Shown here piece after piece: positions 14,132-40,263 of a stretch of 64,000 bases of DNA (position 1 is its first letter; each line of letters opens with the position of its first letter). This stretch comes from a virus, in UHGV virus genome UHGV-1372088; one strand, 5' to 3'. The position numbers and the translations under genes were made by a program. Under the pieces are notes generated by a model that saw nothing but the letters and a program-made list of their open reading frames with translations, did not search any database and had not been told where the DNA came from.

Positions 14132-14132
14132 C

Positions 14133-15331: not shown

Positions 15332-15340
15332 TCAAATCAA

Positions 15341-15362
15341 GGCCCAGAAATGGGCCTCTTTA
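15341..15362 (+). terminator. hairpin ggccca gaaa tgggcc with a weak T tract
   Basis: Stem-loop immediately after the frameshift-product stop. Confidence 0.4.
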
Positions 15363-15375
15363 ACGAGATAAAAGT

Positions 15376-15693: not shown

Positions 15694-15716
15694 AAACCCG
15701 CGATGAATCCGATGAG

Positions 15717-16043
15717 GTGGTTTTGTCCATCGACTTCGGGTTCTATTTCAGTCGTGTAGCTGCTTATTACTCCTTGCCACCGAAACAACTACTGGAAATA
15801 CCGCTTGAGACATTCTGGATGATGAGTCGAAACATCGAACGAATCCAGTCAGAGCGCGACTTGAGAGATTTTCAGGTCGCCAGGGTCGCTCAGGCCGGTG
15901 TTGAAGATGCTAAGGCGTTCATGGAGGGTTTGCAGCTAAGGATTGGAAGACCTGTCATCACTGATAGGGTGTACAACCCAGAACGAGTCAAAGCAGACCC
16001 TGACGCCAAAGCGCAATTAATGGCAGTCTTTGGAAAAGGATAG
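15717..16043 (+). CDS. tail assembly chaperone T-like ORF (in the -1 frame relative to the G-like ORF)
   Basis: Frame relationship typical of gpG/gpGT. The -1 frame is open from 15657. No canonical X_XXY_YYZ heptamer was found in 15657-15690. Confidence 0.4.
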   Translation: MVLSIDFGFYFSRVAAYYSLPPKQLLEIPLETFWMMSRNIERIQSERDLRDFQVARVAQAGVEDAKAFMEGLQLRIGRPVITDRVYNPERVKADPDAKAQLMAVFGKG

Positions 16044-16046
16044 GGA

Positions 16047-23191: not shown

Positions 23192-26100
23192 ATGGAACAG
23201 TTCAAAAAAAGAAAACTGCCTGAAATTATCGCAGGTGCTGGCGGCAAGAAGTCGTCCGGCTCGTCAAGGACACCGGTAGAGGCGGACGACACCGTTAACT
23301 CGAATGTCAAAGTATCCATTCTGGACTTGCTGGGTGAGGGCGTTATTGGCGGTCTGAAGGACGGCGCGAAGTCGATCTTCCTTAACGACCTGCCATTGCA
23401 GAACTCTGACGACACTTACAACCACTCAGGCGTAACCTGGTGGTTCCGTGATGGCTCTCAGGACCAGAGCATCATCGAAGGCTTCGACTACACCGAAACG
23501 CCTAAAACCATCGGCTTGCAGGTCAAGAAAACGAGCGCCGTTACGATGGCGGTCGACAGTGACAGCGCTGACCGCTTCCGCGTCATTCTGAAATTCCCAT
23601 CGCTGAAATCTGTCGACAAAAAGACGGGTGACACCAGCGGTACTTCTGTCACGTACAAATTCCAGGTGAGCAGTGCCGGCGGCGCATTTGTTGACGTGGC
23701 GCCAGAGGGCGAGTCCTCCGGGACCGTTACGCTGACCGCGAAGAAGGCCGGCGTTTATTATCGAAGCTACATACTCAACCTGCCGAAGCCGGGCTCTAAG
23801 TATCAGGTTCGTGTTGTTCGTGTTACCGACGACAACAAAGACACGACCTACCTTGCCAACGATATCTATGTGGATACCGTCGGGGAGATCATCAACACCA
23901 ACATGAACTACCCGAACTCTGCGCTGGTCGGCCTTCGCGTCAACTCAGAGCAGTTCGGCTCGTCCATGCCGTCTCGTTCGTACCTGATTAGCGGTATGAA
24001 GATCCGCGTCCCGTCAAACTACGATGAAGTCACCAACGAATACCGAGGGACATGGGACGGTTCGTTCAAACTGATGTCGTCCAGTAACCCGGCATGGATT
24101 CTGTATGACCTCGTGACCAATAAGCGCTATGGTCTGGGTGAGTTCGTCAGAGAGTCAATGTTTGACCTTGGCCAGCTTTATCAGATCGGCCGGTACTGCG
24201 ATGCGCTGGTTGACGACGGCTTTGGTGGCAAAGAGAAACGATTCGCCATCAACACGCAGATCACCACGCTTCAGGACGCCTATCGCTGCGTTCAGGATAT
24301 TGCTGGTGCTTTCCGTGGGATGGTTTATTGGGCCGGCGGCATGGTTCATGTGACGCAGGATAGCCCGTCAGACCCGATCGCCATCTACTCAAACTCCAAC
24401 GTAATTGATGGTCGATTCTCCTACAAAGGCTCTGCCCGTAAGGATCGCCCTTCTGTCGCGCTTATCACCTACAACAACAAAGAAGACAATTACAAGCAGA
24501 ATATTGAGTATGTCGAAGACTTAGAAGCCATTGAGCGCTACGGGATACGCAAGACGGAGTCTGTAGCGTTTGGTTGTACTTCTCGTGGCATGGCTCATCG
24601 TGTGGGCTTGTGGACGCTTTATACAGGGCGTATGGAGTCGGACGTTATCACGTTCCAGACAGGGATGGACTCAGCATTCCTCGTTCCGGGCGACGTCATC
24701 CTGATTCACGACAAGTTCCGCGCCGGCCGTCGTAATTCTGGTCGTGTTGTCGCATCCACCGCAAACAGCATTACACTGGACTCTACGGTCGACATGACCA
24801 AGGCTGGCACCATCACCTTCATTAACGCTGAAGGCCGGATGATTAGCCGCGACATCCTTGAATCTGGCGTAGTGAGCAAAGTCACCTTTAAAGATGCAGT
24901 GAACGAGGCCGACCGCCCGGTTGCTGATGGCATCTGGGTGATTTCTCAAAGCGATCTGAAACCGCTTCAGGCTCGCGTAGTTGGTGTTACCCAGGGTGAA
25001 GACGGCGTTGGTAGCACGATCACCTGTATCCAGAATAACCCGTCCAAATATGCTGCCATTGATGACGGCGCCGTGCTCATCCCGCAAAACACGACCGTCC
25101 TTGATCCGACATTCTCGAAACCCGAGAACCTGAAGATCACTGAAGGAACATACCTGTCCTCTCCGGGCAACCTAAACGTATCGCTGACGGCGACATGGGA
25201 AGGTAAATCCGCAGAGTATTGGGTTAGCTGGCGCCGATCCGATGCCGGTAATGTGTCCAACTGGCAGACGGCCAAAGTTAACGAAGAGCAGTTCGAAGTT
25301 AAGCCGGTCGCGGAGAGCGGCAAATACGACTTCCAGGTGTACGGCGTTTCCGTCTCCGGGCGTAAGACCGAAATCCTCAGCACAACGTATCAGGTTCTGG
25401 GAACCATGACGCCTCCGGGCGCTCCATCGTCTCTGACTGCCGTTGGCGACTACCGCCAGATTATCCTTGGCTGGTCTAACCCGTCGTCCGTCGATTTGGA
25501 TCACATCCAGATTTACGCCTCGAAGACCAACGACGTCACCAAGGCGACTCTGCTGGCTAAATCCACGACCACCAACTTCACCCACAGCGGTCTGGAAGAT
25601 TCGGTAACGTGGTACTACTGGATTCGCTCGGCCAACAAACGCGGCATGACCAGTGACTGGAGCTCGAAGCTCGGTACGTCGGCAATGACGCGCGATGTAT
25701 TGTCGTTCCTGCAAAACAAGATCACCGAATCCGAGCTCGCCAAAGACCTTCTGGCTGATATCGACAGCAAGGCGGTTGCTGCTGAGGTTGATGCTTCCAT
25801 TGAAGACGCGAAGTCCGAAGCTACCGCGCAGGTTGAGGCCGCCAAGAAAGAGGCGTCCAGCGCCTTAAGCGCAGCCCAGGTCACGCTGAACAACGCCATC
25901 AATCAGGAAGCGACTGACCGCAATAATGCTGTTGCTGACGAAGCTAAGCAGCGCTCCCAGGCTATTTCGGCAGAAGCTGATGCGCGTACCAAGGCTATCT
26001 CCGATGAGGCTATCGCTCGCGCTGACGCAATTACAAAAGAGTCCGACACTCGCACGAGGGCAATGGCCGACGAAGTCACCGCCCGAAACAAGGCTGTCGC

Positions 26101-29100
26101 TGACGAAGCCGCCGCCCGGACAAAGGCTGTGTCTGACGAGGCTGTCGCTCGCGCCAAGGCTGTGTCTGATGAGGTGGCGGCCAGAACCAAAGCTGTCGCA
26201 GATGAGGCCACCGCTCGCGCCAAGGCGATATCTGACGAAGCCGCCGCACGCGCTACGGCAATTAGCGATTCGGTGGCGGTTGAGGCTACCGCTCGCGCGA
26301 AGGCTATCGCAGACTCCGCGTCGTCTCTCAGCGACAAAATTGAAAAAGAGGTCACCGATCGCGTCAAGGCTGTTTCCGATCTGGACACCAAAACCGCAAA
26401 CGCGATCTCGTCCGAATCATCAAGCCGCATCGCTGCCATTTCTGATGAGGCAAAGACTCGCGCTGACGCTATTCTTCAGGAGAAGAACAGCCGCCAGGCG
26501 GAAATTAAAAATGTGTCCGCTCAAATGCAGACCGCCAACGAGTCTCTGGCGCAGCAGATTTCACAGGTCGCAGCGGGAACAGGCGAGCAGTTCGACAGTC
26601 TCAAGATCTGGTATTTCGATGCACAGACAACTGAAGGGTGGAGCGGCAACAAGAGCGCTATTCTGTCTGCTGACGGGTGGATTCGCTCAGGCAATGGCGT
26701 GGATGCATGGCTGACATCGCCAGCAGGTCTTGCTATCGCCGGCGCATCCTATCGCTTCATGAAGATGCGTATCCGAAAAGTGGGTAATCCAGTTTGGGAA
26801 GGTGCAATTCGCTGGATCACCAAAAGCGGCGATAGCTTCAACAACACCAATTTCATCACGGTAAGCGAACCGGAGTACAACGCCCAGGGTGTTGCTACGC
26901 TGACGGCAAGCGATATCAAGTGGAATAACGATACCGTTCACCAGATTCGTCTTGATCTTTCCATCTCGACCGATGATTCAAACTACATCGAAGTCGACTG
27001 GATCGCCGTCGGCCGACCAACTCCGGGCGCCGGCATGGCCGCTCTGCAAGATGAGAAGACCGCCCGTACCAACGCTGATGCAGCAGAAGCAGCCAGCCGC
27101 TCAACTCTGGCAACACAGCTGCGTGGCTCTTATGACGGGACTGACATTACAAAGCTGAGCTCTGGCCTCATCTTCCAGGAGCAGCAAGCGCGTGTAACTG
27201 CCGATAAAGTAGAGGCGACCGCACGTCAGTCACTGGAAACCAAAGTGAATGACAGCGTATCGAGTATCAACAAGTCGCTCGATACGCTGAACACGAAAGA
27301 CCAGGCGATGGCGTCAGACATCACCGGCCTTAAATCTTCTTTAGACGACAAAGCTGATGCGTCGGCCGTTCAGACACTCAAGGCGACGGTCGAGCAGCAG
27401 GGCTCGAATATCTCTACTCAGGGACAGTCGATCACCAAGCTTCAAGGCGATCTGAATACCACCAACACCAATGTTGGGAAGAAAGCCGACCAGACGGCCA
27501 TGACCGCGTTACAGGGAACTGTGACCCAGCAGGGCAAGGATATCGCGGCAGCCAACAGCAGCATCTCCACCCTGAAGTCTTCTCTGGACACTACGAACGA
27601 TGCGGTGGCCAAGAAAGCTGATGCGACGGCGGTCAGCGATCTGTCTTCTCGCGTAAGCGCGACAGAAGGTAGCGTGTCCAGTCAGGGCGACAGCATTGTC
27701 CAGCTGAATAACTCACTGAGCAACGCTCTGGCGGACTCTGACGCTTCAGCCAAGACTCCGAACAACCTGATCGTCAACCCATCGTTTGAGCGTGGTATGG
27801 ACGGTTATATTGGCGCATCCAGTCTCAGTACGGTCGTTACTGTTCAGATACCGCATGTCGGCACAAAAGCACTGAAAATTGACCCAGGTAGCTCCGTATC
27901 TCCGGGCCAGTACATCGATTTTGTCAAAGGCCGTACTTATGAGATCGGCGTCTGGGTTAAACAGGTTTCTGGAACAACAGATAATGGGCAGGGCAACAAC
28001 AAGCTGCGAGTGGGTAATAGTGCTGGAGCGCCAGTGTTTGAGGTCCCGTTCGCAAACCTCACCATTGACTGGACGAAAGTTAGCAAACGATGGAAGGCTA
28101 CCGAGACGGGAAGTCTGCCCGTTACGCTGAGCAACTATCTGACCGCCGGCAACCGCTACTTCGATGACTTCTACGTTATCGACGTAACCGACGCCGTGAA
28201 CATCGATGCGAGCGCCTCCGCGATTTCTTCGTTGCAGAGTACCGTCACGCAACAAGGTAAAGACATTTCGTCGCAGTCCACCAGCATCGCTGGCCTGAAC
28301 AACAGCCTGAACACAACCAACGAAAACGTCGCGAAGAAGGCTGATTCCTCTGCGGTCCAGACGTTGCAAAATACTGTGACGCAGCAGGGCAAGGATATCT
28401 CTGCCGCCAATAGCGACATCACCAATCTGAAAGGCAGTCTGGATGCGACAAACGATAAAGTCGCTACCAAGGCTGACGCTTCAGCAATGAGTGATCTGGC
28501 GTCTCGCGTATCCCAGAATGAGAAAGGCATTGCCACGCAATCCGACTCTCTGACCAAATTGAGTAACAAGGTGTCCAGCATTGACGTCGGCGGTGTGAAC
28601 CTCATCACCAACGGCGATATGAGTGCGGCGCCGGTATCTCTGCTTTCCACTACGACCAGCTTTAAATCGTTCGATCGTACCGTGACTGCCGATGTCCGTG
28701 GCATGTCAGTGGTGACGCCTCGCTCAATAACGCTGTCCGTATGGTTTAAAGAGCTGTCCTCTGGGTTCGGGACGACGAAGCCGTTCACCAGTGTTGTGAT
28801 TGGTAAAAGCGCTGCCGGCGATAATTGGGGCGTTCGTTTCTATGCCAGCAACGGAAGTGTGTCGCAGAAAGGGGATATGTTCGTCTGGACCGGTACGATT
28901 AACCTGAAAGCCGGCGACACGCTGTTCAATGACCCGACGACGATCCGCTTCATTCTGGAAGATAAAACCCAGAAGACTGGCGCCATCTTCTACCGCGTTA
29001 AGTTGGAAAACGGCAACATCGCAACCGACTGGTCCGCAAGCCCGGACGAAGTGAAGTCAGGTCTGGATGCCAATGCGTCTGCACTGAATGCACTAACGAC

Positions 29101-32100
29101 GCGCGTTGCCTCAACCGAGGGTAATGTTGAATCTCAGGGCAACAGCATCACTTCTCTGAAGAACGACCTGGCGACAACCAACGCCAACGTTTCGAAGAAA
29201 GCTGACTCGTCCGCTGTAGCGACAATCCAGAGCACGGTAACGCAGCAGGGCAAGGACATTGCATCCTCCGCGTCCGACATCTCATCGCTGAAGAATAGTC
29301 TCGCCACAACGGACAGCAACGTCGCGAAGAAGGCGGACGCCTCAGCACTGCAAACTCTGCAAAACACGGTAACACAGCAGGGTAAAGATCTGACCAGCGT
29401 TGGCAATCGTGCAACGGCGCTGGAGAACAGCCTCAAAACGACGAACGACAATGTTGCGACCAAGGCCGATGCCTCCGCGCTGTCAACGCTTCAGAATACC
29501 GTATCACAGCACGGTGATTCCATTGCGTCTCAGAGCGACTCAATAACCAGTCTGAAAAACAGCGTCGGTTCTTTGGTTAACATGGGCGACAATCTGGTTC
29601 AGGACTCCAGCTTTGACAACGGCGGGCAAACGTTCAGGACTCAGCAAAATTCTGGAACATCTGGAAGTATTGTTGCGTTTGGCGCGTTTGGTGAAAACTC
29701 GGCCGGTGTGCGTATGGTTAAAGTCAACGGTACGTCGCCTGGTCTGTTCGCTAACGGCAAACTGCCAGTTCCGGTAAATGGCGCGAGAAAATACCGTTAC
29801 ATTGTTCGCGCGAAGGGTGTTTCCGGGGCAATGAATATGCTGCTGCGCCGCTGGAATTTTAACGGCAATACGGAAGGGGCGTATGAAGACAAGAACAATA
29901 CGCTGACAACCGACTGGCAAACCATCACCTGGGACACATCCTTCTCGCCGAAAGACGGCGTTGACGGTCAGTCCTTTGGCATCTACTGCCATCCGAACAA
30001 TGGCGAGATCTGGATTGATTCATTCCAGGTGTTCGACATTACCGATGCGACCAACAATGAGACGACGGCCAGCGCGTTAAGCAATCTGTCGACGACCGTT
30101 TCCAGGCAGGGTGAAACCGTCACCTCTCAGGGTACGGCGATCACCAAGTTGCAGAATGACCTCAGCTCCACCAAGACCGATCTGGCTAAGAAAGCGGATG
30201 CATCGGCGCTTCAGACACTGCAAAGCACCGTGACCGATCAGGGTAAGACGCTGACCAGCCAGGGTGATGCGATCACGGCGCTGAATAACACCGTTAATAC
30301 GGTGAAAGGTGATGTGGCAAAGAAAGCCGACTCCTCTGCGCTTCAGAATCTTCAGAGCACCGTAACACAGCAGGGTAAAGACATCTCCACCAATGCCAGC
30401 AACATCACGGCGCTGACTGGAAACCTTGCCACCACAAACGCTGCCGTCGCAACGAAAGCTGATGCTTCTGCGTTGAACAACCTCACAACGAGAGTGACCC
30501 AGAACGAGAAGAACATCTCTTCTCAAAGTGACGCCGTAACGAAGCTGTCCAACACGGTAAGCAACATCGCGGTAGGTAGCGCAAACCTGATTCCGAACTC
30601 CGGCACAATGGAGGGATGGTCTGACGTCATTAGCGACACCTATCGTGGCAACAAGGTCTTCTCGTTCACGAGAAAAGCCAACAGCTCAAGCTACGTTCAG
30701 TCGAACGAGATTGTGCTGGCCGGCCCGGTGGACTCCGACAGCTACGTCTACAGCTTCTGGGCGAAAGCCGCGAAGGATGGCACTGTCATCAACGCCTACT
30801 TCTACAACCCAAGCAACACGACCGGTTCTGAAACAAGCCAGGGTGTTAAGGGTAGCAGTTCTGATGGCTCTGCGGCGATCACACTGACCACCTCATGGGC
30901 GCGTTATTGGGTTAAGTGGACTCATTCTCCGACAACCGGAACGAAGCGCTTCATTCCGGCGCGACTGAACAATTCCTCAACTGCCGACCAGACTGTCTTC
31001 ATCAGCTCGCCGCAGCTGGAAACCGGCAACGTCGTAACCGACTGGAAAGCGGCAGACAGTGATTTCGCCTCAGCCTCCGCGCTCAGTACGCTGACCAGCC
31101 GTGTAACCTCGGATGAAGGCGTTATTTCATCTCAGGGTTCGGCAATCGCCGATCTGAAAAACAGTCTGGCGACAACAAACTCGACCGTTGCAACAAAGGC
31201 GGACGCTTCAGCGTTGAGTTCGCTTCAGAACACCGTAACCAAGCAGGGTACGGACCTGAAGTCGGCGTCTGATTCCATCACGACGCTGAAGAACAGCATC
31301 GCGGCGACTGATGCCAATGTTGCCAAGAAAGCGGACGCATCCGCTCTCCAGACGCTCCAGAGCACCGTCTCTACGCAAGGGGATAAGATTGCCAGTCAGG
31401 GTAATTCTATCACCAGCCTGGGCAACTCACTGGACACCGTGAAGGGCGATGTTGCGAAGAAGGCGGACACTACGGCTTTGAATAACCTTTCTACTCGGGT
31501 TAGCAATGCCGAAGATAAGATCAGCAGCAGCAGTGACGCCATCACTTCGCTGAACAGCTCGCTGAATCAGCAGTCTAAGCGCGGCGCAAACATCCTGCCA
31601 GACGGGACGTTCGAGAGCTATTCGAGCGGGTACAATATCACCAATGGTCGCGTCATCGTGACTGCTGACGATTCTCACGGCGGAAACAAATGCATCCGTG
31701 TGACACGTCCGAACGACTACACTAATTATACAGATAACAGTGACAACCACATCTTCAGCGGCTTCCAGGTTCGCGACAACGCGGTATTCTATGTTGAGTG
31801 CTGGGTTAAGCTGGACGCCAAGAGCACGACGATGGATGGCTCGGTGCAGATTGCGGTCGGCATGTCGTTGCAGTATCAGGATAACTCCTGGCAGTGGCCG
31901 GCACTCATTAAGTCGGCAAAAGATCTGTCCGCAGACACCTGGACGAAAGTCAGTGGCTATCTGAAGAGCAGCAAGAGCGGTATCAAACAGGCGATGGTGC
32001 GGATCTCCATACCAAACGTATCGACTGTTAAGGCGGGTAACTCCTTCCTCGTCGATGATTTTGTCATTACCGACGTGACAGACGCCTATAATGCCCAGCA

Positions 32101-35100
32101 GACGGCTGATGCCACTGCGAGCGCGGTATCAACGCTTCAGACGACTGTGTCCAGGCAGGGCGACAGCATCACCTCGCAGGGCGACAGCATCACAACCCTG
32201 AATAATGGCCTGGCCACGGCGAACAAAGCCATTGGCACCAAGGCTGATGCCTCCGCGCTGTCATCGCTGCAAAACACCGTTACCCAGCAGGGTGAAGACG
32301 TTGCTGCCAACACCAACAATATCACTGCGCTGTCAAATCAGGTTGTCAACGGCAAGCAGGACACTTGGGCTCGCCGCATCTACAAGTGCCAGCTTGCCAA
32401 CGCCGGCACCGAACCGACGTTTAGCGACATTCAGGGGCTTTCCCCGGTATTTATGGATGAAGTGGCCGACGCAGCCAGGATGGACTTCTCTGGCGCCGGA
32501 TCGTATGTAGTCGCGCATTACAAGGCGATGGTTCGTGTTGCTGCGGATACCACCATCTCTGTGTCGCCTGGCTCTCGTGTGTTTGATGACTCCGGTGCGG
32601 TGTATGTGAATGGTGTTCGTCAGGCTGCTGCGTTGTCTGGAACAGCTGTACTCAATTTCACACTGTCCGCCGGCTGGAATACTGTAGAGTTTCTGGTTAA
32701 CCAGTGGACCGGTAATGCCTATGTCAATCTGGGCTTCAAGCTGGGCGACAAGGTTGCCGAGCTGTATTCTGGTCTGGGCGTCTCTTCACTGTCTTCGGCG
32801 CTGAACTCGATCAGCTCCAACGTCAGCAAGGTGGGTGATCAGGTTTCCAGCAACAGCACGGCGATCACCTCTCTGAAGAACGGCCTGAGCGATACCAACT
32901 CTACCGTTGCGAAGAAAGCGGACGCTTCGGCTCTTCAGACGCTGCAAAACACGGTTACTCAGCAAGGTAAGGATATTGCAAGCCAAAGCGACAGTGTTAC
33001 GAATCTCAGCAACGCACTAAGTAACGTTTCTATTGGTGGCGTCAACCTGATCAAAAACTCAGGCGACATGGCCGGGTGGTCTGGTAAAACCAATGAAATC
33101 TTCCGTGGCAATGCGGTGATTAGCGCGACTACTAAAGCGGGCAGTTCCTACCGAGATCTCAAGGAGATTACTCTCGACGCTCCAGTCGACAATGCAGAGT
33201 ACGTTTACAGTTTCTTTGCAAAAGGCGGTGAGAACGGCCAGAGCATGACCGCTTACTTCTACAATCCTAACTCGACGATATCTAGTGTTAGTAGCCAGGG
33301 TGTGTCAGGCGGTGATGTCGATGGTCGTATGTCATTCACTTTGACAACTGAGTGGGTTCGTTATTGGGTTAAGTGGAAGCAGAAGCCGGGAACTGGATCT
33401 AAGAGACTAATCCTTGCTCGCATCCAAGCATCTTCGACGAAAGATCAGACCGTCTCTATCACCAGCCCTAAGCTGGAAGTTGGCAATATGCCTACAGAGT
33501 GGTCTCCGGCGCCGAGCGATATGGCATCGTCTAACGATCTGTCATCGCTGAAGACTACGGTTGACGCGAATAGCGGCGCTATTCAGTCTGTAACCTCTCG
33601 CGTCCAGAAAACTGAAGACAATATCTCCACGCAGAATACCGCGATCACTAAGCTTCAGGGTGATTTGTCGACCACCAACAATCTGTTTTCCACGAAGGCT
33701 GATTCCACCGCGCTTCAGACGCTGTCAGGTCGCGTCGATAAGACGGAGTCCAGCATCAGCACCCAGAACGATGCAATAACCAAGCTGAACAGCAGCCTTG
33801 ATACCACAAATAAAGCTGTGGCTAAAAAGGCGGAGCAGTCGTCTCTCGATACGCTGAGCGGCCGGGTATCCAGCACTGAAAATGGGATCACGGCGGCGAA
33901 CTCCAGCATCACGTCTCTGAATGCGGCTATTCGCGCAGAGAACGCGAGCAGTGGGGATTTGATTACTAACCCTACATTTGACCCTCAGTACGCTCAGATG
34001 GGCTTTACCGTCGTCACAACCGACACAGATGGTGTTCCAGCAAACTGTCCATTCAGATATGCGGCTAAACTTGCGTCCCGTGACCATCATCCGAACTTCA
34101 ACGCCATCGTTGCAACATTGGGCGATGTGTTTGAGATTTCGGTGCTGGTGGCGTGCGGCGCTGGGAATGCTGACTTTAACCTCTATCTTTGCACAGCAAA
34201 CGGCCCAACTGGTGGGATAGGTGCCCCGCTTTATAATGGCGGAAATACCAAAGCTACAAGCACCTGGACTCGCGTAACATGGAAGTTCACTGTTAGCCAG
34301 GCAATGGTTGACAAAGGCTACATTCGTCCGTTCCTGCAAATCAACCAGTCTTCACCGTTCGGTACGATCTGGTACGTCACTGACTGGCATATGCGCAACA
34401 TCACTGCGGCATCAAAGGCGCAGGATACGGCGAATGCCACCTCTAAGGCGGTCGATTCTCTGACGTCCACGGTGAACCAACAGGGCAGCGATATTTCCTC
34501 GATCGGCTCTCGTACAACGTCGCTTGAGAATGGTCTTAGCACCACAAACGCCAACGTTTCGAAGAAGGCTGATTCTTCTGCGCTTCAGACGCTACAGAAC
34601 TCGGTAACACAGCAAGGCAATGACATTTCTGGCCAAGGTTCTCGCGTAACGTCTCTGGAAAATAACCTGACGGCCGGAGCAAACCTCATTCCTAACCCAG
34701 CGATGCTTAACGGCGCTCAGGGTTGGGGTGGTTCTGAGACAACTGTTGATGGTTACGCGGCGGTCGTCAGCAGCTCAGGCTGGGGACCATCGTCGTCCTA
34801 CTTCCAAGTGACGCCAGGCGACATTATCGATTTGAGCCTGATGAGCCAGAGCGCGGGCGCAGCATCCATCTCATGGGGACTCCGCTTCGACGGCCCTGGA
34901 CTGAGCAATTTCTGTCTCTACGCCCCTGCGTTGACCTTCGCGGCTGGCGAGAAGAAGAGTGTATCTGCGGCTATTACCGTACCTGCTGGCGCAACAAAGG
35001 CGATGTTCCAGGCAAGCGCTAGGGCGACTTCCGCACGTACCGTATATAACATCATTGCTACCCGCCGTGATGCTGGAACCAAAGCCAACAGCTCTGCGAT

Positions 35101-38100
35101 TGATACGTTGAACAGCACCGTCAAAACGCAAGGTGACACGCTTAGCTCGATCGGAAGTCGTACAACTTCGCTGGAAAATGGGCTGAGTAGCGCTAACAGC
35201 GCTCTCTCACTGAAAGCGGACGCGTCGGCACTGTCATCGCTGACAAATACAGTGACCCAACAAGGCAAGGATCTGGATGCAGCAGAAGCCAATATAACTG
35301 CGGCGAACACCAGCATCACCTCCATGCAGGCGTCTCTGACTCGTCGCACTGTATTTACGGTAACGGCGAAAGGCAACGGTAACAGCGCTAATCACGGTTT
35401 CTTTGATGAGTCAGGTAAAAATCTGTTTACGCCTGGTCGCAGCTATGCGCTGATCACGTTTAAAGCGAATAGCGACGGCTCGACGGTCATTAATACCAGC
35501 AAAACCTATGACGTTTTTGGCTCTGCCAACAACGGGAAGGCGATGTCTGACGATATTGCGGCTCTGGCTAATGGCGTTTACGTTTGCGTGATGACTTATG
35601 ACGAGCCGTCGGGTCAGCGTAACTCGATTGCATCTGCCTTAGAGTTGCTCGGTGGCACAACTGAAGTTATTAACTCTCTGCCATATCGCGGCGCGTACAT
35701 TCTCCTTGGCCGTAAAGGCATGAAGGCCGGCGACGGTCTGGAGTTACGCGCACCTACAGGTGGTGACTCCAGCGCATTTATTTCCACGTCCGTTGAGTTT
35801 GTGAACGGGGTAATGATGGGGTTGGGCGCCGCCGGCGGTGTGATGATGAAGGCGGATGCGAACGCCAGTGCAATCACCACTCTGCAAAACACCGTTAAGC
35901 AGCAGGGCGACACTATCGCTTCGAGCAGTAGTGCCATCACCTCTCTGCAAAACGACATGAGGACGGTTAATGACAATGTCTCTAAAAAGGCAGATGCATC
36001 GGCGCTTCAGACTTTGCAGAACACGGTAACGCAGCAGGGTAAAGATATCTCTACCCAAAGCGCGTCGCTGACGCAGCTCAATAACAGCCTCAGCGCGACG
36101 AATGCCAGCATCGATGCGTCGGGCAAGATCCCTGGGAACCTGATCGTCAACTCGTCATTCGAGCGCGATAAAGATGGCTACACCGGCTGGAGCTCTATCG
36201 CCTCCGTCATCGCAGCGTCGGTGCCACACTCAGGAAGTAAAATCCTCAAGCTGGCTGCCGGCGGATCTGTGTTAGTCGGGCAGGACGTTACCTATCTGAA
36301 GGGTCGCACCTATAAAATCGGCGCATGGGCTAAGCAGGATTCAGGCACCGTTATTCAGGCTGCGGACAACACGAAGTTCCGTATCGCGGATAGCACAGGT
36401 TTGCTGGCTAGTAGTGTTTACGGTCCTTTCACGTCAAACTGGCAGGAGATTAGCTTCACCTGGAGGCCGGGTAAAGATGTGACAGCGGCGACACAGATCA
36501 CCGCCTACCTGTCCGCCGGTGCGATGTATTTCGACGACTTCTACGTTATCGACATCACCGACCGCGTCGATCTGGATGCCACGGTGTCTGCGGTTTCCGG
36601 TCTGACGACGAGAGTGTCCAATGCTGAAGGGAATATTTCTTCCCAATCCGACAGCATCACCACTCTGAACAACGGTCTTAGCACTCTGAACAAGACGGTC
36701 AGCACCAAGGCCGATGCCACGGCGCTGTCTTCACTTCAGAATACCGTGACGCAGCAGGGCAAGGATATTTCGTCGGCGAGCGGAAGCATCACCAGCCTTC
36801 AGAGCAGCCTGAATACGATCAAGGTTCAGAGCAACCCTTGGATTGACGGTACGTTTGAAACCTATGACAACAATCAGCAGCTGGGCGGCAGCACTGCGAT
36901 TGTAACGACGGACTTCAAGAACAGCGGCAACAAATGTCTGAAGGTTACTCGCCCAGCCAATACCAGCGGGAATTCCGACAAGACGATCGGCTCCTATTCT
37001 GCGGTGCGCCAGAGCGCGAAATATCGCGTTGAGTTTTGGGCTATGATGCCGGCAAGTGAAGCCCCGCCGTCTGGCTGGACTGTGGTCGTTGGTCTGCACT
37101 CCATCAACAAAGATGGTGGGAATGACTGGCAGGGCATTGCGTTCGACGAGGCTGGTCTTGGCGGTCGCGACCAGTGGGTTAAGTTTACTGGTGTAGTGAA
37201 AGTGAGTCCGAGCGTTACCCGTAGCCATGTATGGATTTCTACTCGTGGTCAGAGTGGCTCCAACACACCTGGATACGCGGTGTACATTGATGATTTCGTC
37301 ATTACCGATATCACTGATGCTGCGGATGCACAGGCTACGGCGGATGCGAACGCAACAGCAATCTCATCGTTGCAGACGAAGGTCAGCGATATCGATGGGA
37401 AAGTGACTGCCCAAACGTCGCAACTGTCTTCCATGCAGTCGAAGGTAGATGCGTCTTCTTCGAAAGTGGATCAGCTGTCTAAGACCATTTCGGACAGTCA
37501 GAGCACTCAGGCATCGTTGAACACCAGTCTTCAGTCTCAGATTGATGCCCAGGCTTCGGCCAACATCAAAAACCAGGCTGATCTGAACTCGGCGGCCACG
37601 AGCATTGCGACCATTAAGTCTACGCAGTCCACACAGGCTACGCAGCTTAGCGCAATTGCCAAGCAGCAAACCGATATGACGGCATCGCTGGACAATCAGT
37701 CGGCATCTATTCAGACGCTTCAGGAGTCTGTCGCGAACAACGATTCTCTGAAGAGCACCTGGATGGTGAAGATGGAGACGAACAGCGCCGGCCAGAAATA
37801 TGCAGCGGGTATCGCGCTGGGTGTGGATGGGAAGAGCCAGCAAAGCCAGTTCTTGGTTCAGGCAGATCGCTTCGCGCTGATTAATACCAGCAACGGCAAT
37901 ACGACGACACCGTTTGTGATCGATAACGGTGTGACGTACATGAATGCCGCTTACATCAAAGATGGGGCGATCACGAACGCGAAAATTGGTGGTGAGATTA
38001 GGTCTGACAACTTCGTAGACGGATCTCAGGGCTGGCGTGTCGGAAAGGATGGTTCTTCTCAGTTCCACAACGTCGTTGTCCGAGGACATGTTGAGGCCAA

Positions 38101-38704
38101 CAGTGGATCGTTCAGAGGCGCTGTTTATGCTACTGACGGTTGGTTCCAGGGCACCGTATACGCGAACCGTATTGAGGGCGACATTGGTTCCTTCGCCATC
38201 AACATCGCACAGCACCGCACGCGTAAAGTGCCGAAGGCGACATGGCAATGGTTCGAGCTGGCCAGATTCCGTCGCCAGAGCTTCGACCAGGTGATCAACA
38301 TTCGCGGCGGTCTATTGCAGACCGACAGCATCACCATCGACGGCGGCGCGAAACTCCGGGCGGGTATGTCGTATTCTTCCGGCGCAGATGGAGGCCTTAA
38401 TCCAGGATTCCTGTCACACGCCATGTTGTTGCGTGCCACTGGCGCAACTTCTGGCGGCGGCAGCATGGAGATCGGCATTGAGCTTATGTACGAAACAGGT
38501 GGGTGGGACCGCCTGCTGACGGCACAAGGGGAGATGAACGTCGACAATATGTCGTTTGTTGTTCCAGCTGGCAGTGGGGATGCAGTTCTTCGTTATGGTT
38601 GTTATCTTGACCGTAACGGGCAAATGGTATTAACCATCCTTTCACGATTCGACGCTTTTTCGGCGCGGAATAACAATGTAATTCGTGGATCGTCCACACC
38701 GTAA
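23192..38704 (+). CDS. J: giant central tail fibre / tip attachment protein J homologue (5170 aa) with inserted tandem CBM4_9-like modules
   Basis: N-terminal ~850 aa are collinear with lambda gpJ (NYPNSALVGLRVNSEQFGS, FN3 region). C-terminal ~330 aa match the gpJ C-terminal region (WMVKMETNSAGQKYAAGIALGV...FLVQADRFALI). Between them lies ~3.9 kaa of repeats. Confidence 0.85.
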   Translation: MEQFKKRKLPEIIAGAGGKKSSGSSRTPVEADDTVNSNVKVSILDLLGEGVIGGLKDGAKSIFLNDLPLQNSDDTYNHSGVTWWFRDGSQDQSIIEGFDYTETPKTIGLQVKKTSAVTMAVDSDSADRFRVILKFPSLKSVDKKTGDTSGTSVTYKFQVSSAGGAFVDVAPEGESSGTVTLTAKKAGVYYRSYILNLPKPGSKYQVRVVRVTDDNKDTTYLANDIYVDTVGEIINTNMNYPNSALVGLRVNSEQFGSSMPSRSYLISGMKIRVPSNYDEVTNEYRGTWDGSFKLMSSSNPAWILYDLVTNKRYGLGEFVRESMFDLGQLYQIGRYCDALVDDGFGGKEKRFAINTQITTLQDAYRCVQDIAGAFRGMVYWAGGMVHVTQDSPSDPIAIYSNSNVIDGRFSYKGSARKDRPSVALITYNNKEDNYKQNIEYVEDLEAIERYGIRKTESVAFGCTSRGMAHRVGLWTLYTGRMESDVITFQTGMDSAFLVPGDVILIHDKFRAGRRNSGRVVASTANSITLDSTVDMTKAGTITFINAEGRMISRDILESGVVSKVTFKDAVNEADRPVADGIWVISQSDLKPLQARVVGVTQGEDGVGSTITCIQNNPSKYAAIDDGAVLIPQNTTVLDPTFSKPENLKITEGTYLSSPGNLNVSLTATWEGKSAEYWVSWRRSDAGNVSNWQTAKVNEEQFEVKPVAESGKYDFQVYGVSVSGRKTEILSTTYQVLGTMTPPGAPSSLTAVGDYRQIILGWSNPSSVDLDHIQIYASKTNDVTKATLLAKSTTTNFTHSGLEDSVTWYYWIRSANKRGMTSDWSSKLGTSAMTRDVLSFLQNKITESELAKDLLADIDSKAVAAEVDASIEDAKSEATAQVEAAKKEASSALSAAQVTLNNAINQEATDRNNAVADEAKQRSQAISAEADARTKAISDEAIARADAITKESDTRTRAMADEVTARNKAVADEAAARTKAVSDEAVARAKAVSDEVAARTKAVADEATARAKAISDEAAARATAISDSVAVEATARAKAIADSASSLSDKIEKEVTDRVKAVSDLDTKTANAISSESSSRIAAISDEAKTRADAILQEKNSRQAEIKNVSAQMQTANESLAQQISQVAAGTGEQFDSLKIWYFDAQTTEGWSGNKSAILSADGWIRSGNGVDAWLTSPAGLAIAGASYRFMKMRIRKVGNPVWEGAIRWITKSGDSFNNTNFITVSEPEYNAQGVATLTASDIKWNNDTVHQIRLDLSISTDDSNYIEVDWIAVGRPTPGAGMAALQDEKTARTNADAAEAASRSTLATQLRGSYDGTDITKLSSGLIFQEQQARVTADKVEATARQSLETKVNDSVSSINKSLDTLNTKDQAMASDITGLKSSLDDKADASAVQTLKATVEQQGSNISTQGQSITKLQGDLNTTNTNVGKKADQTAMTALQGTVTQQGKDIAAANSSISTLKSSLDTTNDAVAKKADATAVSDLSSRVSATEGSVSSQGDSIVQLNNSLSNALADSDASAKTPNNLIVNPSFERGMDGYIGASSLSTVVTVQIPHVGTKALKIDPGSSVSPGQYIDFVKGRTYEIGVWVKQVSGTTDNGQGNNKLRVGNSAGAPVFEVPFANLTIDWTKVSKRWKATETGSLPVTLSNYLTAGNRYFDDFYVIDVTDAVNIDASASAISSLQSTVTQQGKDISSQSTSIAGLNNSLNTTNENVAKKADSSAVQTLQNTVTQQGKDISAANSDITNLKGSLDATNDKVATKADASAMSDLASRVSQNEKGIATQSDSLTKLSNKVSSIDVGGVNLITNGDMSAAPVSLLSTTTSFKSFDRTVTADVRGMSVVTPRSITLSVWFKELSSGFGTTKPFTSVVIGKSAAGDNWGVRFYASNGSVSQKGDMFVWTGTINLKAGDTLFNDPTTIRFILEDKTQKTGAIFYRVKLENGNIATDWSASPDEVKSGLDANASALNALTTRVASTEGNVESQGNSITSLKNDLATTNANVSKKADSSAVATIQSTVTQQGKDIASSASDISSLKNSLATTDSNVAKKADASALQTLQNTVTQQGKDLTSVGNRATALENSLKTTNDNVATKADASALSTLQNTVSQHGDSIASQSDSITSLKNSVGSLVNMGDNLVQDSSFDNGGQTFRTQQNSGTSGSIVAFGAFGENSAGVRMVKVNGTSPGLFANGKLPVPVNGARKYRYIVRAKGVSGAMNMLLRRWNFNGNTEGAYEDKNNTLTTDWQTITWDTSFSPKDGVDGQSFGIYCHPNNGEIWIDSFQVFDITDATNNETTASALSNLSTTVSRQGETVTSQGTAITKLQNDLSSTKTDLAKKADASALQTLQSTVTDQGKTLTSQGDAITALNNTVNTVKGDVAKKADSSALQNLQSTVTQQGKDISTNASNITALTGNLATTNAAVATKADASALNNLTTRVTQNEKNISSQSDAVTKLSNTVSNIAVGSANLIPNSGTMEGWSDVISDTYRGNKVFSFTRKANSSSYVQSNEIVLAGPVDSDSYVYSFWAKAAKDGTVINAYFYNPSNTTGSETSQGVKGSSSDGSAAITLTTSWARYWVKWTHSPTTGTKRFIPARLNNSSTADQTVFISSPQLETGNVVTDWKAADSDFASASALSTLTSRVTSDEGVISSQGSAIADLKNSLATTNSTVATKADASALSSLQNTVTKQGTDLKSASDSITTLKNSIAATDANVAKKADASALQTLQSTVSTQGDKIASQGNSITSLGNSLDTVKGDVAKKADTTALNNLSTRVSNAEDKISSSSDAITSLNSSLNQQSKRGANILPDGTFESYSSGYNITNGRVIVTADDSHGGNKCIRVTRPNDYTNYTDNSDNHIFSGFQVRDNAVFYVECWVKLDAKSTTMDGSVQIAVGMSLQYQDNSWQWPALIKSAKDLSADTWTKVSGYLKSSKSGIKQAMVRISIPNVSTVKAGNSFLVDDFVITDVTDAYNAQQTADATASAVSTLQTTVSRQGDSITSQGDSITTLNNGLATANKAIGTKADASALSSLQNTVTQQGEDVAANTNNITALSNQVVNGKQDTWARRIYKCQLANAGTEPTFSDIQGLSPVFMDEVADAARMDFSGAGSYVVAHYKAMVRVAADTTISVSPGSRVFDDSGAVYVNGVRQAAALSGTAVLNFTLSAGWNTVEFLVNQWTGNAYVNLGFKLGDKVAELYSGLGVSSLSSALNSISSNVSKVGDQVSSNSTAITSLKNGLSDTNSTVAKKADASALQTLQNTVTQQGKDIASQSDSVTNLSNALSNVSIGGVNLIKNSGDMAGWSGKTNEIFRGNAVISATTKAGSSYRDLKEITLDAPVDNAEYVYSFFAKGGENGQSMTAYFYNPNSTISSVSSQGVSGGDVDGRMSFTLTTEWVRYWVKWKQKPGTGSKRLILARIQASSTKDQTVSITSPKLEVGNMPTEWSPAPSDMASSNDLSSLKTTVDANSGAIQSVTSRVQKTEDNISTQNTAITKLQGDLSTTNNLFSTKADSTALQTLSGRVDKTESSISTQNDAITKLNSSLDTTNKAVAKKAEQSSLDTLSGRVSSTENGITAANSSITSLNAAIRAENASSGDLITNPTFDPQYAQMGFTVVTTDTDGVPANCPFRYAAKLASRDHHPNFNAIVATLGDVFEISVLVACGAGNADFNLYLCTANGPTGGIGAPLYNGGNTKATSTWTRVTWKFTVSQAMVDKGYIRPFLQINQSSPFGTIWYVTDWHMRNITAASKAQDTANATSKAVDSLTSTVNQQGSDISSIGSRTTSLENGLSTTNANVSKKADSSALQTLQNSVTQQGNDISGQGSRVTSLENNLTAGANLIPNPAMLNGAQGWGGSETTVDGYAAVVSSSGWGPSSSYFQVTPGDIIDLSLMSQSAGAASISWGLRFDGPGLSNFCLYAPALTFAAGEKKSVSAAITVPAGATKAMFQASARATSARTVYNIIATRRDAGTKANSSAIDTLNSTVKTQGDTLSSIGSRTTSLENGLSSANSALSLKADASALSSLTNTVTQQGKDLDAAEANITAANTSITSMQASLTRRTVFTVTAKGNGNSANHGFFDESGKNLFTPGRSYALITFKANSDGSTVINTSKTYDVFGSANNGKAMSDDIAALANGVYVCVMTYDEPSGQRNSIASALELLGGTTEVINSLPYRGAYILLGRKGMKAGDGLELRAPTGGDSSAFISTSVEFVNGVMMGLGAAGGVMMKADANASAITTLQNTVKQQGDTIASSSSAITSLQNDMRTVNDNVSKKADASALQTLQNTVTQQGKDISTQSASLTQLNNSLSATNASIDASGKIPGNLIVNSSFERDKDGYTGWSSIASVIAASVPHSGSKILKLAAGGSVLVGQDVTYLKGRTYKIGAWAKQDSGTVIQAADNTKFRIADSTGLLASSVYGPFTSNWQEISFTWRPGKDVTAATQITAYLSAGAMYFDDFYVIDITDRVDLDATVSAVSGLTTRVSNAEGNISSQSDSITTLNNGLSTLNKTVSTKADATALSSLQNTVTQQGKDISSASGSITSLQSSLNTIKVQSNPWIDGTFETYDNNQQLGGSTAIVTTDFKNSGNKCLKVTRPANTSGNSDKTIGSYSAVRQSAKYRVEFWAMMPASEAPPSGWTVVVGLHSINKDGGNDWQGIAFDEAGLGGRDQWVKFTGVVKVSPSVTRSHVWISTRGQSGSNTPGYAVYIDDFVITDITDAADAQATADANATAISSLQTKVSDIDGKVTAQTSQLSSMQSKVDASSSKVDQLSKTISDSQSTQASLNTSLQSQIDAQASANIKNQADLNSAATSIATIKSTQSTQATQLSAIAKQQTDMTASLDNQSASIQTLQESVANNDSLKSTWMVKMETNSAGQKYAAGIALGVDGKSQQSQFLVQADRFALINTSNGNTTTPFVIDNGVTYMNAAYIKDGAITNAKIGGEIRSDNFVDGSQGWRVGKDGSSQFHNVVVRGHVEANSGSFRGAVYATDGWFQGTVYANRIEGDIGSFAINIAQHRTRKVPKATWQWFELARFRRQSFDQVINIRGGLLQTDSITIDGGAKLRAGMSYSSGADGGLNPGFLSHAMLLRATGATSGGGSMEIGIELMYETGGWDRLLTAQGEMNVDNMSFVVPAGSGDAVLRYGCYLDRNGQMVLTILSRFDAFSARNNNVIRGSSTP

Positions 38705-38757: not shown

Positions 38758-40263
38758 ATGAGTATGTACGAAGTTGGCACCGTAGCGGGTGCCGCAAATC
38801 AGGCGAAAGTGACTGGTACGACGACGAAATGGTCCAATGCCGCGCTGGGTGTCCAGCAAGGTTCTATTCTGGTTGTTTACAGGAGCGGCAATGCAGATCT
38901 GTATGCGATCAAGTCTGTCGATAGCGACACACAGTTAACGCTGTCCAGAAATATCACTGTCGCTTTCTCTGGCGCGTCGTATGGCATTATTACGTCAGAG
39001 ACAGCCAGCACGTCAGCTTTTGCCAATCAGCTCGCCAGCGCGTTCTCCCTTTGGCGTAGCGTCGTCGAAGGATGGTCTGCTGCGCTGACGTCGACGGGCA
39101 ACATTACGATGACAGATCCCATCACAGGAGTGTCAGTTACGGTCCCTGCCATTAATGGCATGGCCAGGATTGCCGGCGGCAACAACTTAACCGGAACGCA
39201 GAGCCTCGACAGCGACGACTCCGGTTTTATCCTCGGAAAAAATGGCGACATAGGTCTTATCAAGAAAAGCGGAACCTATGGGAAGGTTATGGTGGGAAAA
39301 TCGTCTCGATTCTCAGTCGTTCGAAGCGACAAAGACCGGATATCGGCAACTGACGAACAGACTGAAATTTTTGGCGTTGAAGCTAACGGTGACGTCAAAG
39401 TCGCGAACTCACTTTATGCTAAAGGTGTTCTACAAAGTGATTATCAGGTTAAAGCGCAAAGTATCGAGCTTTCCTATACAACACCGTATATCGACTTCCA
39501 TTATGGGAATAGCACGGCAGACTATACTCACCGAATTATTGCGGATGACCCGGTCGCATTAGGGTTCGAGTGCAGTCTTCGAGTTGCCAAAAATATTCGC
39601 GCGCAGGAGGGTATCAAAGCCGATTTATATGTGCGTGCCGCCAGTCGTGCCGGCATCATAGCGCAATATGACAGTGACCCCGGCGGAAATATCGGTGATC
39701 TTCGAGTTGCCCCAATCGTATGCAGTCAATTCGCAACTGTAGGCGCTGATGGAAACGGGAACGCTGGCGCGAATTTTTGGTTTGAGGAACACATAGGTTA
39801 CAACCACCGTCTGGTAACTCAGGTCAAGGGATATGGTGCGGCGGTTCAGTATTGGCATCATCGCAGCGATGGGATGATTTGGAATAGTCAACGTGGGGAT
39901 GTGGCATGGGCTGCAACCTCTGATAAAAATCTCAAGCATGATATTAAGCCCACAGACGGTCGACAGTCTCTGGATAACATCAACGCTATGGACCTCGTTA
40001 CGTTTGTTTATAACGATGACGAAAAAGGCAGAACGAGACGTGGCGTGATAGCGCAGCAACTTCAGGAGATTGACCCATGCTATGTGAAGGTTAGTCGTGG
40101 CGAAATACTCAAAGATGAAACTGAAGACGGCACGGGGACTCCGGTTGTTGTTGAGAAGCTCGTTCTGGACACCAACCCTCTCTTGATGGATGCACTGAGT
40201 GCCATTCAGGTTTTGTCGAGAGAGATTGAATCCCTAAAAGCTGAGTTAGCCTTGCGCTCTTAG
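38758..40263 (+). CDS. tail fibre / tailspike with a C-terminal intramolecular-chaperone (peptidase S74-like) domain
   Basis: C-terminus DKNLKHDI...GVIAQQLQEIDPCYV...LLMDALSAIQVLSREIESLKAEL resembles the autoproteolytic chaperone domain of endosialidase-type fibres. Confidence 0.6.
   Translation: MSMYEVGTVAGAANQAKVTGTTTKWSNAALGVQQGSILVVYRSGNADLYAIKSVDSDTQLTLSRNITVAFSGASYGIITSETASTSAFANQLASAFSLWRSVVEGWSAALTSTGNITMTDPITGVSVTVPAINGMARIAGGNNLTGTQSLDSDDSGFILGKNGDIGLIKKSGTYGKVMVGKSSRFSVVRSDKDRISATDEQTEIFGVEANGDVKVANSLYAKGVLQSDYQVKAQSIELSYTTPYIDFHYGNSTADYTHRIIADDPVALGFECSLRVAKNIRAQEGIKADLYVRAASRAGIIAQYDSDPGGNIGDLRVAPIVCSQFATVGADGNGNAGANFWFEEHIGYNHRLVTQVKGYGAAVQYWHHRSDGMIWNSQRGDVAWAATSDKNLKHDIKPTDGRQSLDNINAMDLVTFVYNDDEKGRTRRGVIAQQLQEIDPCYVKVSRGEILKDETEDGTGTPVVVEKLVLDTNPLLMDALSAIQVLSREIESLKAELALRS

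Follow-up and report, generated by a model that had tools for sequence, protein, structure and literature searches.

Tiers of putative sugar-binding modules in a giant J-type tail-tip protein of a Klebsiella phage-plasmid

What has been built into a phage tail-tip protein that reaches 5170 amino acids (aa), when its homolog in phage lambda, gpJ, has 1132? The question is raised by a 64,000-nucleotide (nt) stretch of UHGV virus genome UHGV-1372088 (the window, whose numbering we use throughout), in which a single uninterrupted open reading frame (ORF) of 15.5 kb, 23192..38704 on the + strand, encodes a giant J-type protein. All features of this gene given below lie on that strand. A preliminary description made from the sequence alone read the protein as a J-type fibre expanded by sugar-binding-type beta-sandwiches and subject to modular exchange, and our analysis partly supports this, finding it right in outline and inaccurate in details. 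The explanation we favor, with moderate confidence, is that three J chains build a tip fibre of great length, which makes multivalent contact with capsule or O-antigen and evolves as modules are exchanged.

The J-homologous ends and the element that carries them

The N-terminal hub region of the protein (aa 1-859, 23192..25768) contains FNIII-A_GpJ, Phage-tail_3 and fn3 domains in Pfam (PF13550 at 100.9 bits, PF24801 at 97.3 bits), and a phmmer search against the PDB aligned aa ~17-859 to residues 3-836 of lambda gpJ (8iyk_J) at E 7e-112 and to the F2 pyocin fibre at E 1e-128. Near the other end, the distal central-fibre domain (Phage_Tail_Tip/DUF1983; aa 4841-5005, 37712..38206) matches PF09327 at E 1e-41, and aa ~4834-5002 align by phmmer to gpJ 840-1001 at E 8e-14. 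Since both ends match gpJ, ~3,970 residues appear to have been inserted at a single junction, gpJ 836/840, which is where lambda J passes from its hub/FN3 part into the straight fibre. The preliminary description had taken the first ~850 and last ~330 aa to be J-like, with an insertion of ~3.9 thousand residues between them, and the alignments bear this out; its coordinates of 25740-37700 (aa 850-4836) bracket the insertion correctly, and the motifs on which it drew are present, KITESELAKDLL at aa ~858 and WMVKMETNSAGQKYAAGI...RFALI at aa ~4842. Lambda gpJ and the F-type pyocin fibre (PDB 8iyk, 25vf) thus share with this protein a hub of ~860 aa, FN3 domains and a homologous distal Phage_Tail_Tip domain, but the 1132 aa of gpJ stand against 5170 here, with the ~3,970 residues and 13 globular domains added at gpJ 836/840.

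The distal domain is preceded by a coil (aa 4719-4840, 37346..37711) that opens with one degenerate copy of the 44-aa repeat described below (E 2e-5 by hidden Markov model, HMM) and continues as an irregular S/T/Q-rich coil. In the phmmer search aa ~4751-4958 match residues 982-1188 of the F2 pyocin fibre 25vf_A at E 2.4e-21, and also 9l9p and 23gd (E values from 2e-21 to 2e-24), and aa ~4751-4840 are homologous to the coil ahead of the distal domain in F-type pyocin central fibres. The C-terminal ~165 aa (38207..38704) are the presumed receptor-binding tip, which is unrelated to the LamB-binding domain of lambda gpJ and exchangeable. Over its final 597 nt the gene has 84.8% identity to the corresponding end of J in Klebsiella phage phiKp_14 (LC768476.1 23166-23761), while this end diverges, at 58-82% identity, in the otherwise near-identical plasmid CP037443. 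Judged from these comparisons, phage backbones that are unrelated seem to exchange the presumed tip as a cassette.

A gene of this length and repetitiveness might be suspected of being an artefact of assembly or annotation, its repeats mis-assembled and the real gene much shorter or interrupted. The gene is indeed highly repetitive at the protein level, and one of its close relatives, plasmid CP056499, is annotated with a coding sequence of only 3890 aa. The DNA copies of the linker repeat, however, are only 60-82% identical in pairwise comparison, so there are no long identical stretches for an assembler to collapse or expand, and the ORF is intact in all three independent complete circular plasmids, CP110757 (Australia, 5171 aa), CP056499 (UK, 5171 aa) and CP037443 (Nigeria, 5123 aa). 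Relatives of 3300-4800 aa occur in many independent genomes. The preliminary description, which had argued from diverged nucleotide copies that the gene was no assembly artefact, was correct on this point: so far as sequence data can show, mis-assembly is ruled out, and we regard the wider suspicion as effectively refuted and scarcely credible. At the CP056499.1 locus (3001-18516), the annotated product is a 3890-aa "DUF1983 domain-containing protein" starting from locus position 6844, and the full 5171-aa frame from 3001 is open. The short coding sequence looks like an annotation truncation of the giant gene.

The genes before J follow the lambda-type order, with a tape measure protein of 1541 aa, M (PF05939), L (PF05100), a K-like protein with JAB and NlpC/P60 domains and an I-like protein, so that J takes the same position after M, L, K and I as in lambda; this order of tape measure-M-L-K-I-J agrees with the annotation of the near-identical CP110757. 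Further upstream in the window lie terminase, portal and further structural genes, and downstream lie primase, ligase, Dam methylase, tyrosine recombinase and CobT/AAA genes. By megablast, 370 plasmid records match the gene, the best at 98% identity over its entire length; 363 of them are from Klebsiella, 363 are typed as non-mobilizable, and those that we inspected are 104-113 kb long. The hosts are K. pneumoniae, K. oxytoca, K. quasipneumoniae and other Klebsiella. The group corresponds to the SSU5-related "pKpn" Klebsiella phage-plasmids (name from PMC9600943), and on these sequence comparisons we identify the giant J as a homolog of lambda gpJ that serves an SSU5-related Klebsiella phage-plasmid of ~110 kb as its tail-tip (central fibre) protein.

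The coiled stalk and its thirteen modules

The insertion begins with a coil of ~23 eleven-residue (33-nt) repeats at aa ~881-1134 (25832..26593), detected by Tandem Repeats Finder (TRF), as direct-repeat family D5 and in a register listing. Its consensus is (V/I)-[AS]-D-E-A-x-A-R-x-K-A, with hydrophobic residues at positions 1, 5 and 8, and TRF places the core of the repeat, with a period of 33 nt, at 26069-26247. This is the run of 11-residue A/E/K repeats already noticed in the preliminary description. A phmmer search of the 11-mer region against the PDB found nothing meaningful. The first globular module, M0, follows directly, and an irregular coil (aa 1290-1386, 27059..27349), recognised from the sequence and with a weak partial match to the linker repeat, leads from M0 to the first 44-aa repeat.

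From there on the insertion is organised as twelve tiers, each of 2-4 linker copies followed by a module of 131-175 aa. Counted with a custom repeat HMM, the linker repeat is 44 aa long (132-nt spacing) and is present in 33 clear copies, at E 1e-9 to 1e-22 per copy, and 1 degenerate copy. It had been described as a 33-residue repeat with 3-5 copies between modules, and neither figure holds; the consensus string given in that description itself has 43 letters, and 33 nt is the period of the other, 11-residue repeat. Three linker copies make up group 1 (aa 1387-1517, 27350..27742; E 2e-20 to 3e-16), group 2 (aa 1673-1802, 28208..28597) and group 8 (aa 3459-3588, 33566..33955, supported also by an AlphaFold2 (AF2) model). 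Four copies are found in group 3 (aa 1960-2133, 29069..29590), group 4 (aa 2293-2465, 30068..30586) and group 5 (aa 2626-2800, 31067..31591). The remaining groups have two copies each: group 6 (aa 2974-3059, 32111..32368), group 7 (aa 3201-3283, 32792..33040), where helices are predicted with a break at the "AD" of KAD, group 9 (aa 3753-3832, 34448..34687), group 10 (aa 3964-4049, 35081..35338), group 11 (aa 4223-4308, 35858..36115) and group 12 (aa 4466-4547, 36587..36832).

When the 33 copies are aligned, strong hydrophobic residues stand at repeat positions 7, 10, 14, 21, 28, 31, 35 and 42. Those at 7, 14, 21, 28, 35 and 42 are the "a" positions of successive heptads and the next such position is 51, so that the 44 residues divide as 5 x 7 + 9, heptads plus a nonad, VAKKADASA. 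An AF2 monomer model of aa 3201-3546 (mean predicted local distance difference test score, pLDDT, 89.8) has a helix of ~41 residues per repeat, with pLDDT 83-93 in the linker helices, broken exactly at the "AD" of KAD; coming from a monomer, this break is consistent with a beta-layer and is not proof of one. A two-residue insertion into a parallel trimeric coiled coil is known crystallographically to give a beta-layer, with the nonad IENKADKAD of OMP100 as a natural example (Hartmann et al. 2016, PMC4786415). VAKKADASA and the OMP100 nonad both start with an aliphatic residue and have K-A-D as residues 4-6. [quoted passage not shown] The resemblance to trimeric autotransporter adhesin stalks such as that of OMP100 (PMC4786415) would extend to a stalk-plus-heads design as well as to heptads broken by a nonad with K-A-D at 4-6, but OMP100 is an outer-membrane autotransporter, whereas this is a phage protein in which the beta-layer is predicted, with one nonad per 44 residues. 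If true, this repeat, with its five heptads and one KAD nonad, would make the stalk a natural alpha/beta coiled coil on a large scale. The length of the stalk can be estimated from the general rule of ~0.15 nm per helical residue, by which the coils sum to roughly 250-300 nm.

Thirteen globular modules are carried on this stalk, M0 before the first linker group and twelve between and after the linker groups, rather than the nine or so of ~200 aa initially described. In sequence profiles and models all look like sugar-binding folds. The folds fall into four or more unrelated kinds, and ten modules belong to one CBM_4_9-like superfamily. We compared modules by module-wise blastp and by hhalign between family profiles, which were built from an exhaustive HMMER search and had linker residues trimmed off. 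The Pfam gathering cut-offs were 25.9 bits for CBM_4_9 (PF02018) and 27 bits for ILEI (PF15711).

Five modules form a class A, ending in YFDDFxVxDxTDA. Two pass the CBM_4_9 cut-off, M1 (aa 1518-1672, 27743..28207; 42.8 bits, E 9e-11) and M11 (aa 4309-4465, 36116..36586; 38.1 bits, E 2e-9), which is 46% identical to M1. Below the cut-off are M12 (aa 4548-4718, 36833..37345; 22.2 bits, E 2e-4), which is related to M5, and M3 (aa 2134-2292, 29591..30067; 15.9 bits, E 0.018), which is tied to M1 and M11 by blastp. The fifth, M5 (aa 2801-2973, 31592..32110), is also below it; this module is 35% identical to M12 (E 4e-21) and matches M1 at E 3e-6. M8 (aa 3589-3752, 33956..34447) is a distant relative of class A (hhalign 99.7%, E 3e-26), and M9 (aa 3833-3963, 34688..35080) is a small jelly roll akin to both (hhalign 97.0% with M8, 95.4% with class A). 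In the first hhalign run, M10 also appeared to be kin to class A (83.7%), a relationship that vanished once linker residues were trimmed and that was due to linker contamination.

Class B consists of three modules ending in LExGNxxTxWxxAPxD, and its trimmed profile matches that of class A at 94.0% by hhalign. M4 (aa 2466-2625, 30587..31066) is 54% identical to M7 (E 2e-52), and M2 (aa 1803-1959, 28598..29068) is a divergent jelly roll ending KLENGNIATDWSASPDE, whose C-terminus finds M7 and M4 by blastp and whose identity to M7 is 21% on alignment. M7 itself (aa 3284-3458, 33041..33565) was used to model the class, and its AF2 model is a 10-strand sandwich with pLDDT 94-98, a predicted jelly roll of the CBM4/9/16/22 type. 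In Foldseek this model matched the phi812 baseplate at E 3e-7, CBM4-2, the Tuc2009 tripod, the sugar-binding protein BT_4411, CBM16 and CBM30 at E 3e-6 to 6e-5, and CBM4 as well, with matches down to E 4e-4 and TM-scores on the target of ~0.5-0.6. M2, M4, M7, M8 and M9 are all below the CBM_4_9 cut-off, and 12 of 30 M7 family members match CBM_4_9 weakly; a search with M7 in an index of 5.8 billion proteins gave 10 matches, mostly short fragments. Tandem runs of 2-6 class B modules (LExGNxxTDWSPAPED) are present in P0065, P0082, P0092, P0101 and other proteins of 1100-2900 aa, which have no 44-aa repeats and mostly no J N-terminus, so the class B jelly roll also circulates in differently built proteins. 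These are probably phage tail proteins.

Three modules stand outside this superfamily. M6 (aa 3060-3200, 32369..32791) has a PA14 beta-sandwich fold and is lectin-like, with two consecutive aspartates (module positions 73-74, Asp3132-Asp3133 of J) that are invariant in 20 of 20 sequences otherwise 17-65% identical to it. A consecutive Asp-Asp calcium/sugar site is the DcisD motif of Flo5, Epa and MpIBP. Pfam PA14 or GLEYA was not matched by M6 and only weakly (E 0.012-0.016) by 2 of the 20 family members, so we call M6 "PA14-fold" rather than a member of Pfam PA14. M10 (aa 4050-4222, 35339..35857) is ILEI/PANDER-like, matching positions 14-89 of the 90 in PF15711 at 45.3 bits and E 1.3e-11. 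M0 (aa 1150-1279, 26639..27028, ending DWIAVGRPTPG) has no Pfam match and is kept directly after the 11-mer coil throughout the family; a profile search against the PDB aligned it to residues 514-618 of the megatron protein of roseophage R4C (8gtc_M) at E 2.2e-7. The matching stretch is included in megatron residues 482-629, designated a "carbohydrate-binding domain" by the authors of that structure (PMC10276861).

The CBM4_9-like identity proposed for all modules in the preliminary description thus stands for ten, in most cases by profile comparison or a fold model, while the PA14-fold M6, the ILEI-like M10 and the megatron-type M0 had been missed. Its suggested Pfam check gave CBM_4_9 above the cut-off for M1 and M11 and below it for M12 and M3, both weak matches, and for M2, M4, M5, M7, M8 and M9. 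The NL(I/V)xN-type motif said to open the modules is found in ten of them, and the closing DDFxVxDxTDA is confined to M1, M3, M5, M11 and M12. That the modules bind sugars, and bind polysaccharide multivalently, we infer by analogy with the proteins whose folds they share.

Relatives and module exchange

Is this protein a singular expansion, or one of many? An exhaustive HMMER search with aa 3060-4222 as the query returned 1260 cluster representatives with E <= 1e-3, of which 135 reached E <= 1e-30; lengths of 2000-4800 aa are common among them. Among the best 150 of the 1260, which we examined, the J N-terminus is present in 41 and the J C-terminus in 39, and module order is shuffled. A genome scan with M0 found 61 loci in Enterobacteriaceae, Stenotrophomonas, Luteimonas, many alphaproteobacteria, Psychrobacter, Acinetobacter and Burkholderia, and M0 with the coil region was found by tblastn in 133 phage records. 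The lengths form a graded series, from proteins of ~1650 aa with the J N-terminus, 11-mer coil, M0 and J C-terminus and no 44-aa repeat, past those with 5-10 repeats and up to giants that exceed 4000 aa, and the window protein and the 5171-aa copy of CP110757 are the longest among the proteins compared. By these comparisons, J of the window is the upper end of a widespread family rather than a singular expansion, and the design recurs, its modules shuffled, in ~370 plasmids and many prophages.

The same architecture is found in gp21 of phiKO2 (3433 aa, annotated as "similar to lambda J protein"), in NAR688 (~4300 aa with 27 repeats, a gene that takes up 23% of the 55-kb genome) and in the 48-kb sewage phage phiKp_14 (3300 aa). 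All three share with the window protein the J ends, the 11-mer coil, M0 and tiers of 44-aa repeats that carry CBM-like, PA14 and ILEI modules. These Klebsiella telomere phages and siphophages differ in having 14-27 repeats against 33 here, in module set and order, and in genomes of 48-55 kb against a circular phage-plasmid of ~110 kb. NAR688 virions have been purified, are infective and have long fibres at the tail end (PMC12042878), which shows that the giant-J architecture occurs in infective phages. We found no published account of this domain architecture in the accessible literature, whose coverage is incomplete for phiKO2 gp21 and the J proteins of the SSU5 group; sequences of this build have been publicly available from phiKO2 onward, and in that literature the family is uncharacterised. 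Papers on the Klebsiella phages PIN1/PIN2 and on Webervirus receptor-binding proteins do not treat this protein.

Closer to home, five related plasmids have J proteins of 4244-5171 aa, with modules 46-99% identical to those of the window. Two of the five lack M2 and M4, one has M6 duplicated and lacks M8, and another has M8 before M7. Between the window and its closest relatives, identity is 99-100% except in module-sized patches at 55-95%. Module number and order thus differ among relatives and identity is patchy, as expected from the recombination hotspot that the preliminary description had foreseen, and the comparison of sequences shows a family evolving by gain, loss, duplication and exchange of modules.

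One distant locus deserves separate mention. The alphaproteobacterial assembly Limoniibacter endophyticus NZ_BMZO01000013.1 encodes a J of 4349 aa with nearly the same module order as the 4250-aa J on scaffold1 of K. pneumoniae ATCC 13883, and both proteins are 54% identical to M0. The Limoniibacter gene may be a contamination of the assembly by a Klebsiella phage or plasmid, or a very recent transfer.

What the fibre may do

Phages that infect Klebsiella are held back mainly by its capsule, and those known get through it with depolymerase tailspikes. No depolymerase-like gene was recognised among the larger ORFs of the window scanned with Pfam, which would fit a role of the tiers in capturing the virion and guiding its tip through the surface layer. 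If the homology to lambda is a guide, three copies of J would form the tip hub through their first ~860 residues, and the insertion would form a parallel trimeric stalk, beginning with the ~23 eleven-residue repeats and the conserved sugar-binding-type M0. In the twelve tiers that follow, 2-4 units of 44 residues, each with five heptads and a "VAKKADASA" nonad as a predicted beta-layer, would lead to each beta-sandwich. In a trimer, the 13 tiers would amount to 39 lectin-like domains, with four or more folds among them and intervals of roughly 13-25 nm along a stalk of the order of 250-300 nm, with an ordinary J distal domain and a swappable receptor-binding tip at its far end. The tiers could then make many weak and reversible contacts with capsule and/or O-antigen, capturing the virion, and the distal tip of the captured virion could be guided through the thick Klebsiella surface layer to a terminal receptor. 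By virtue of the conserved linker sequence, modules can be exchanged between phages, and this would retune host range. By fold, there are precedents among siphophage adhesion devices (lactococcal Tal and Dit extensions and BppA, the phi812 baseplate, the R4C megatron), in which beta-sandwich CBMs are likewise grafted onto tail-tip proteins; such CBM-decorated devices binding cell-surface polysaccharide have been reviewed (PMC7291167). Those devices carry one to a few CBMs near the baseplate, whereas the window protein has 13 tiers along a coiled-coil stalk within the J polypeptide.

The beta-sandwiches need not be lectins for such a fibre to be useful. They could be inert beads, like Ig or FN3 decorations, on a spacer or ruler that sets the length and stiffness of the fibre and thereby the reach of the tip through capsule. 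A tunable ruler would be expected to vary in length as this family does (1650-5170 aa), 10 of the 13 modules miss the curated family cut-offs, and binding-site residues were identified in none of the CBM-like modules. A spacer would, however, hardly require four unrelated folds typical of carbohydrate binding where one cheap fold would serve, nor an Asp-Asp pair in M6 that is invariant among 20 sequences of 17-65% identity, and module identity turns over faster than that of the linkers, which fits selection on specificity and not on length alone. We consider a purely mechanical role unlikely, and give about the same low credence to a different division of labor, in which each tier reads a different surface glycan and a single virion is able to adsorb to hosts with many different K or O types, using one or a few tiers on any given host. 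The thirteen modules are all different, the closest pairs being only 35-54% identical, module repertoires differ among relatives, and the plasmid family inhabits K. pneumoniae, K. oxytoca, K. quasipneumoniae and other Klebsiella. Such a panel of specificities is compatible with multivalent capture, and the data here favor neither; the terminal tip must in either case still reach the outer membrane.

Several points weigh against the capture of virions by a long trimeric fibre. For sugar binding, the trimer, the beta-layer and the fibre length the grounds are homology, a monomer model and the pattern of the sequence; a curated Pfam cut-off is passed by only three modules of the 13 (M1, M10 and M11), and a CBM or PA14 fold alone does not prove lectin activity. 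Micrographs of NAR688 show "a central tail spike and multiple long tail fibers" rather than one very long central fibre (PMC12042878), so the three chains may remain apart instead of making up one stalk, or the fibre may lie folded. A further difficulty is the distance of ~250 nm between tip and hub, across which receptor binding would have to set off DNA ejection. Finally, a related phage-plasmid, p2 of Kp1604, gave membrane vesicles only, with no phage particles or plaques, upon induction with mitomycin C (PMC8969562), so virion production by this plasmid group is not established.

The behavior of p2 could also be taken to mean that J is a relic in a defective element, which makes no virions and in which the gene is passive or repurposed. 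A stop-free frame of 15.5 kb has nevertheless been kept in several plasmids, the gene lies among complete-looking tail, head and packaging genes, and proteins of the same architecture are found in infective phages, so we regard a relic as quite improbable.

The problem of signaling along the fibre would be eased if the stalk acted as a winch. According to a preprint, the coil immediately ahead of the distal domain in the F7 pyocin fibre turns from a trimeric coiled coil into a beta-prism when the receptor is bound (PMC12874032). The window protein has the homologous coil. If a similar switch spread along the S/T/A-rich 44-residue repeats, the fibre would become several-fold shorter, reeling the tail tip over roughly 200 nm of capsule to the outer membrane with the virion meanwhile anchored in polysaccharide by the lectin tiers. 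The switch would also account for the passage of a receptor signal to a hub 3,900 residues away. A crude pattern search for SxSxxMxxLxS found 5 matches in the distal coil against 1.6±1.2 in shuffled sequences and 10 in the linker groups against 3.5±1.8, and 2 in the 11-mer region against 4.7±2.2. We offer the winch as a long shot.

If multivalent capture by the tiers is true, there would be a second route past the capsule, by way of a tip fibre of great length on which weak sugar-binding domains sit by the dozen, and the mechanistic question of how a receptor signal is passed along such a long fibre would follow from it. The set of modules would determine host range in a way that can be read from the sequence, for plasmids present in hundreds of clinical Klebsiella genomes, and some plasmids of this family carry resistance genes. 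The 44-residue linker with its swappable modules would likewise be a natural scaffold for engineering the specificity of phages and tailocins.

Other genes of the window provide some context for the fibre. Immediately after J, 38758-40263 (+) encodes a tail-fibre protein of 501 aa with a C-terminal Peptidase_S74 domain (an endosialidase-type intramolecular chaperone; E 6e-15), of which relatives carry a 513-aa version; it is the sole other fibre-like gene recognised in the window. The tape measure protein (16047-20672, +; 1541 aa) points to an unusually long tail, estimated at ~230 nm by the ~0.15 nm per residue rule. Tape measures are much shorter in NAR688 and phiKp_14 (980 aa in the latter), though both carry a giant J, and fibre length and tail length thus do not scale together. 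Cargo genes encode a CobT/VWA protein and, after it, an AAA_5 (MoxR/CobS-like) ATPase, a Dam-type N6-adenine methyltransferase, a tyrosine recombinase and a ResIII/DEAD helicase, with coordinates listed jointly as 59006-62412 (+), 52806-53684 (+), 56969-57991 (+) and 521-2113 (-). A cargo set of CobT/AAA, Dam, recombinase and helicase genes is typical of SSU5-group phage-plasmids. Within J itself, a 262-aa ORF (25926-26714, +) runs in an alternative frame over the 11-mer repeat region, and many ORFs of 100-300 aa are antisense to the gene; these are most likely by-products of biased, repetitive codon content and not genes.

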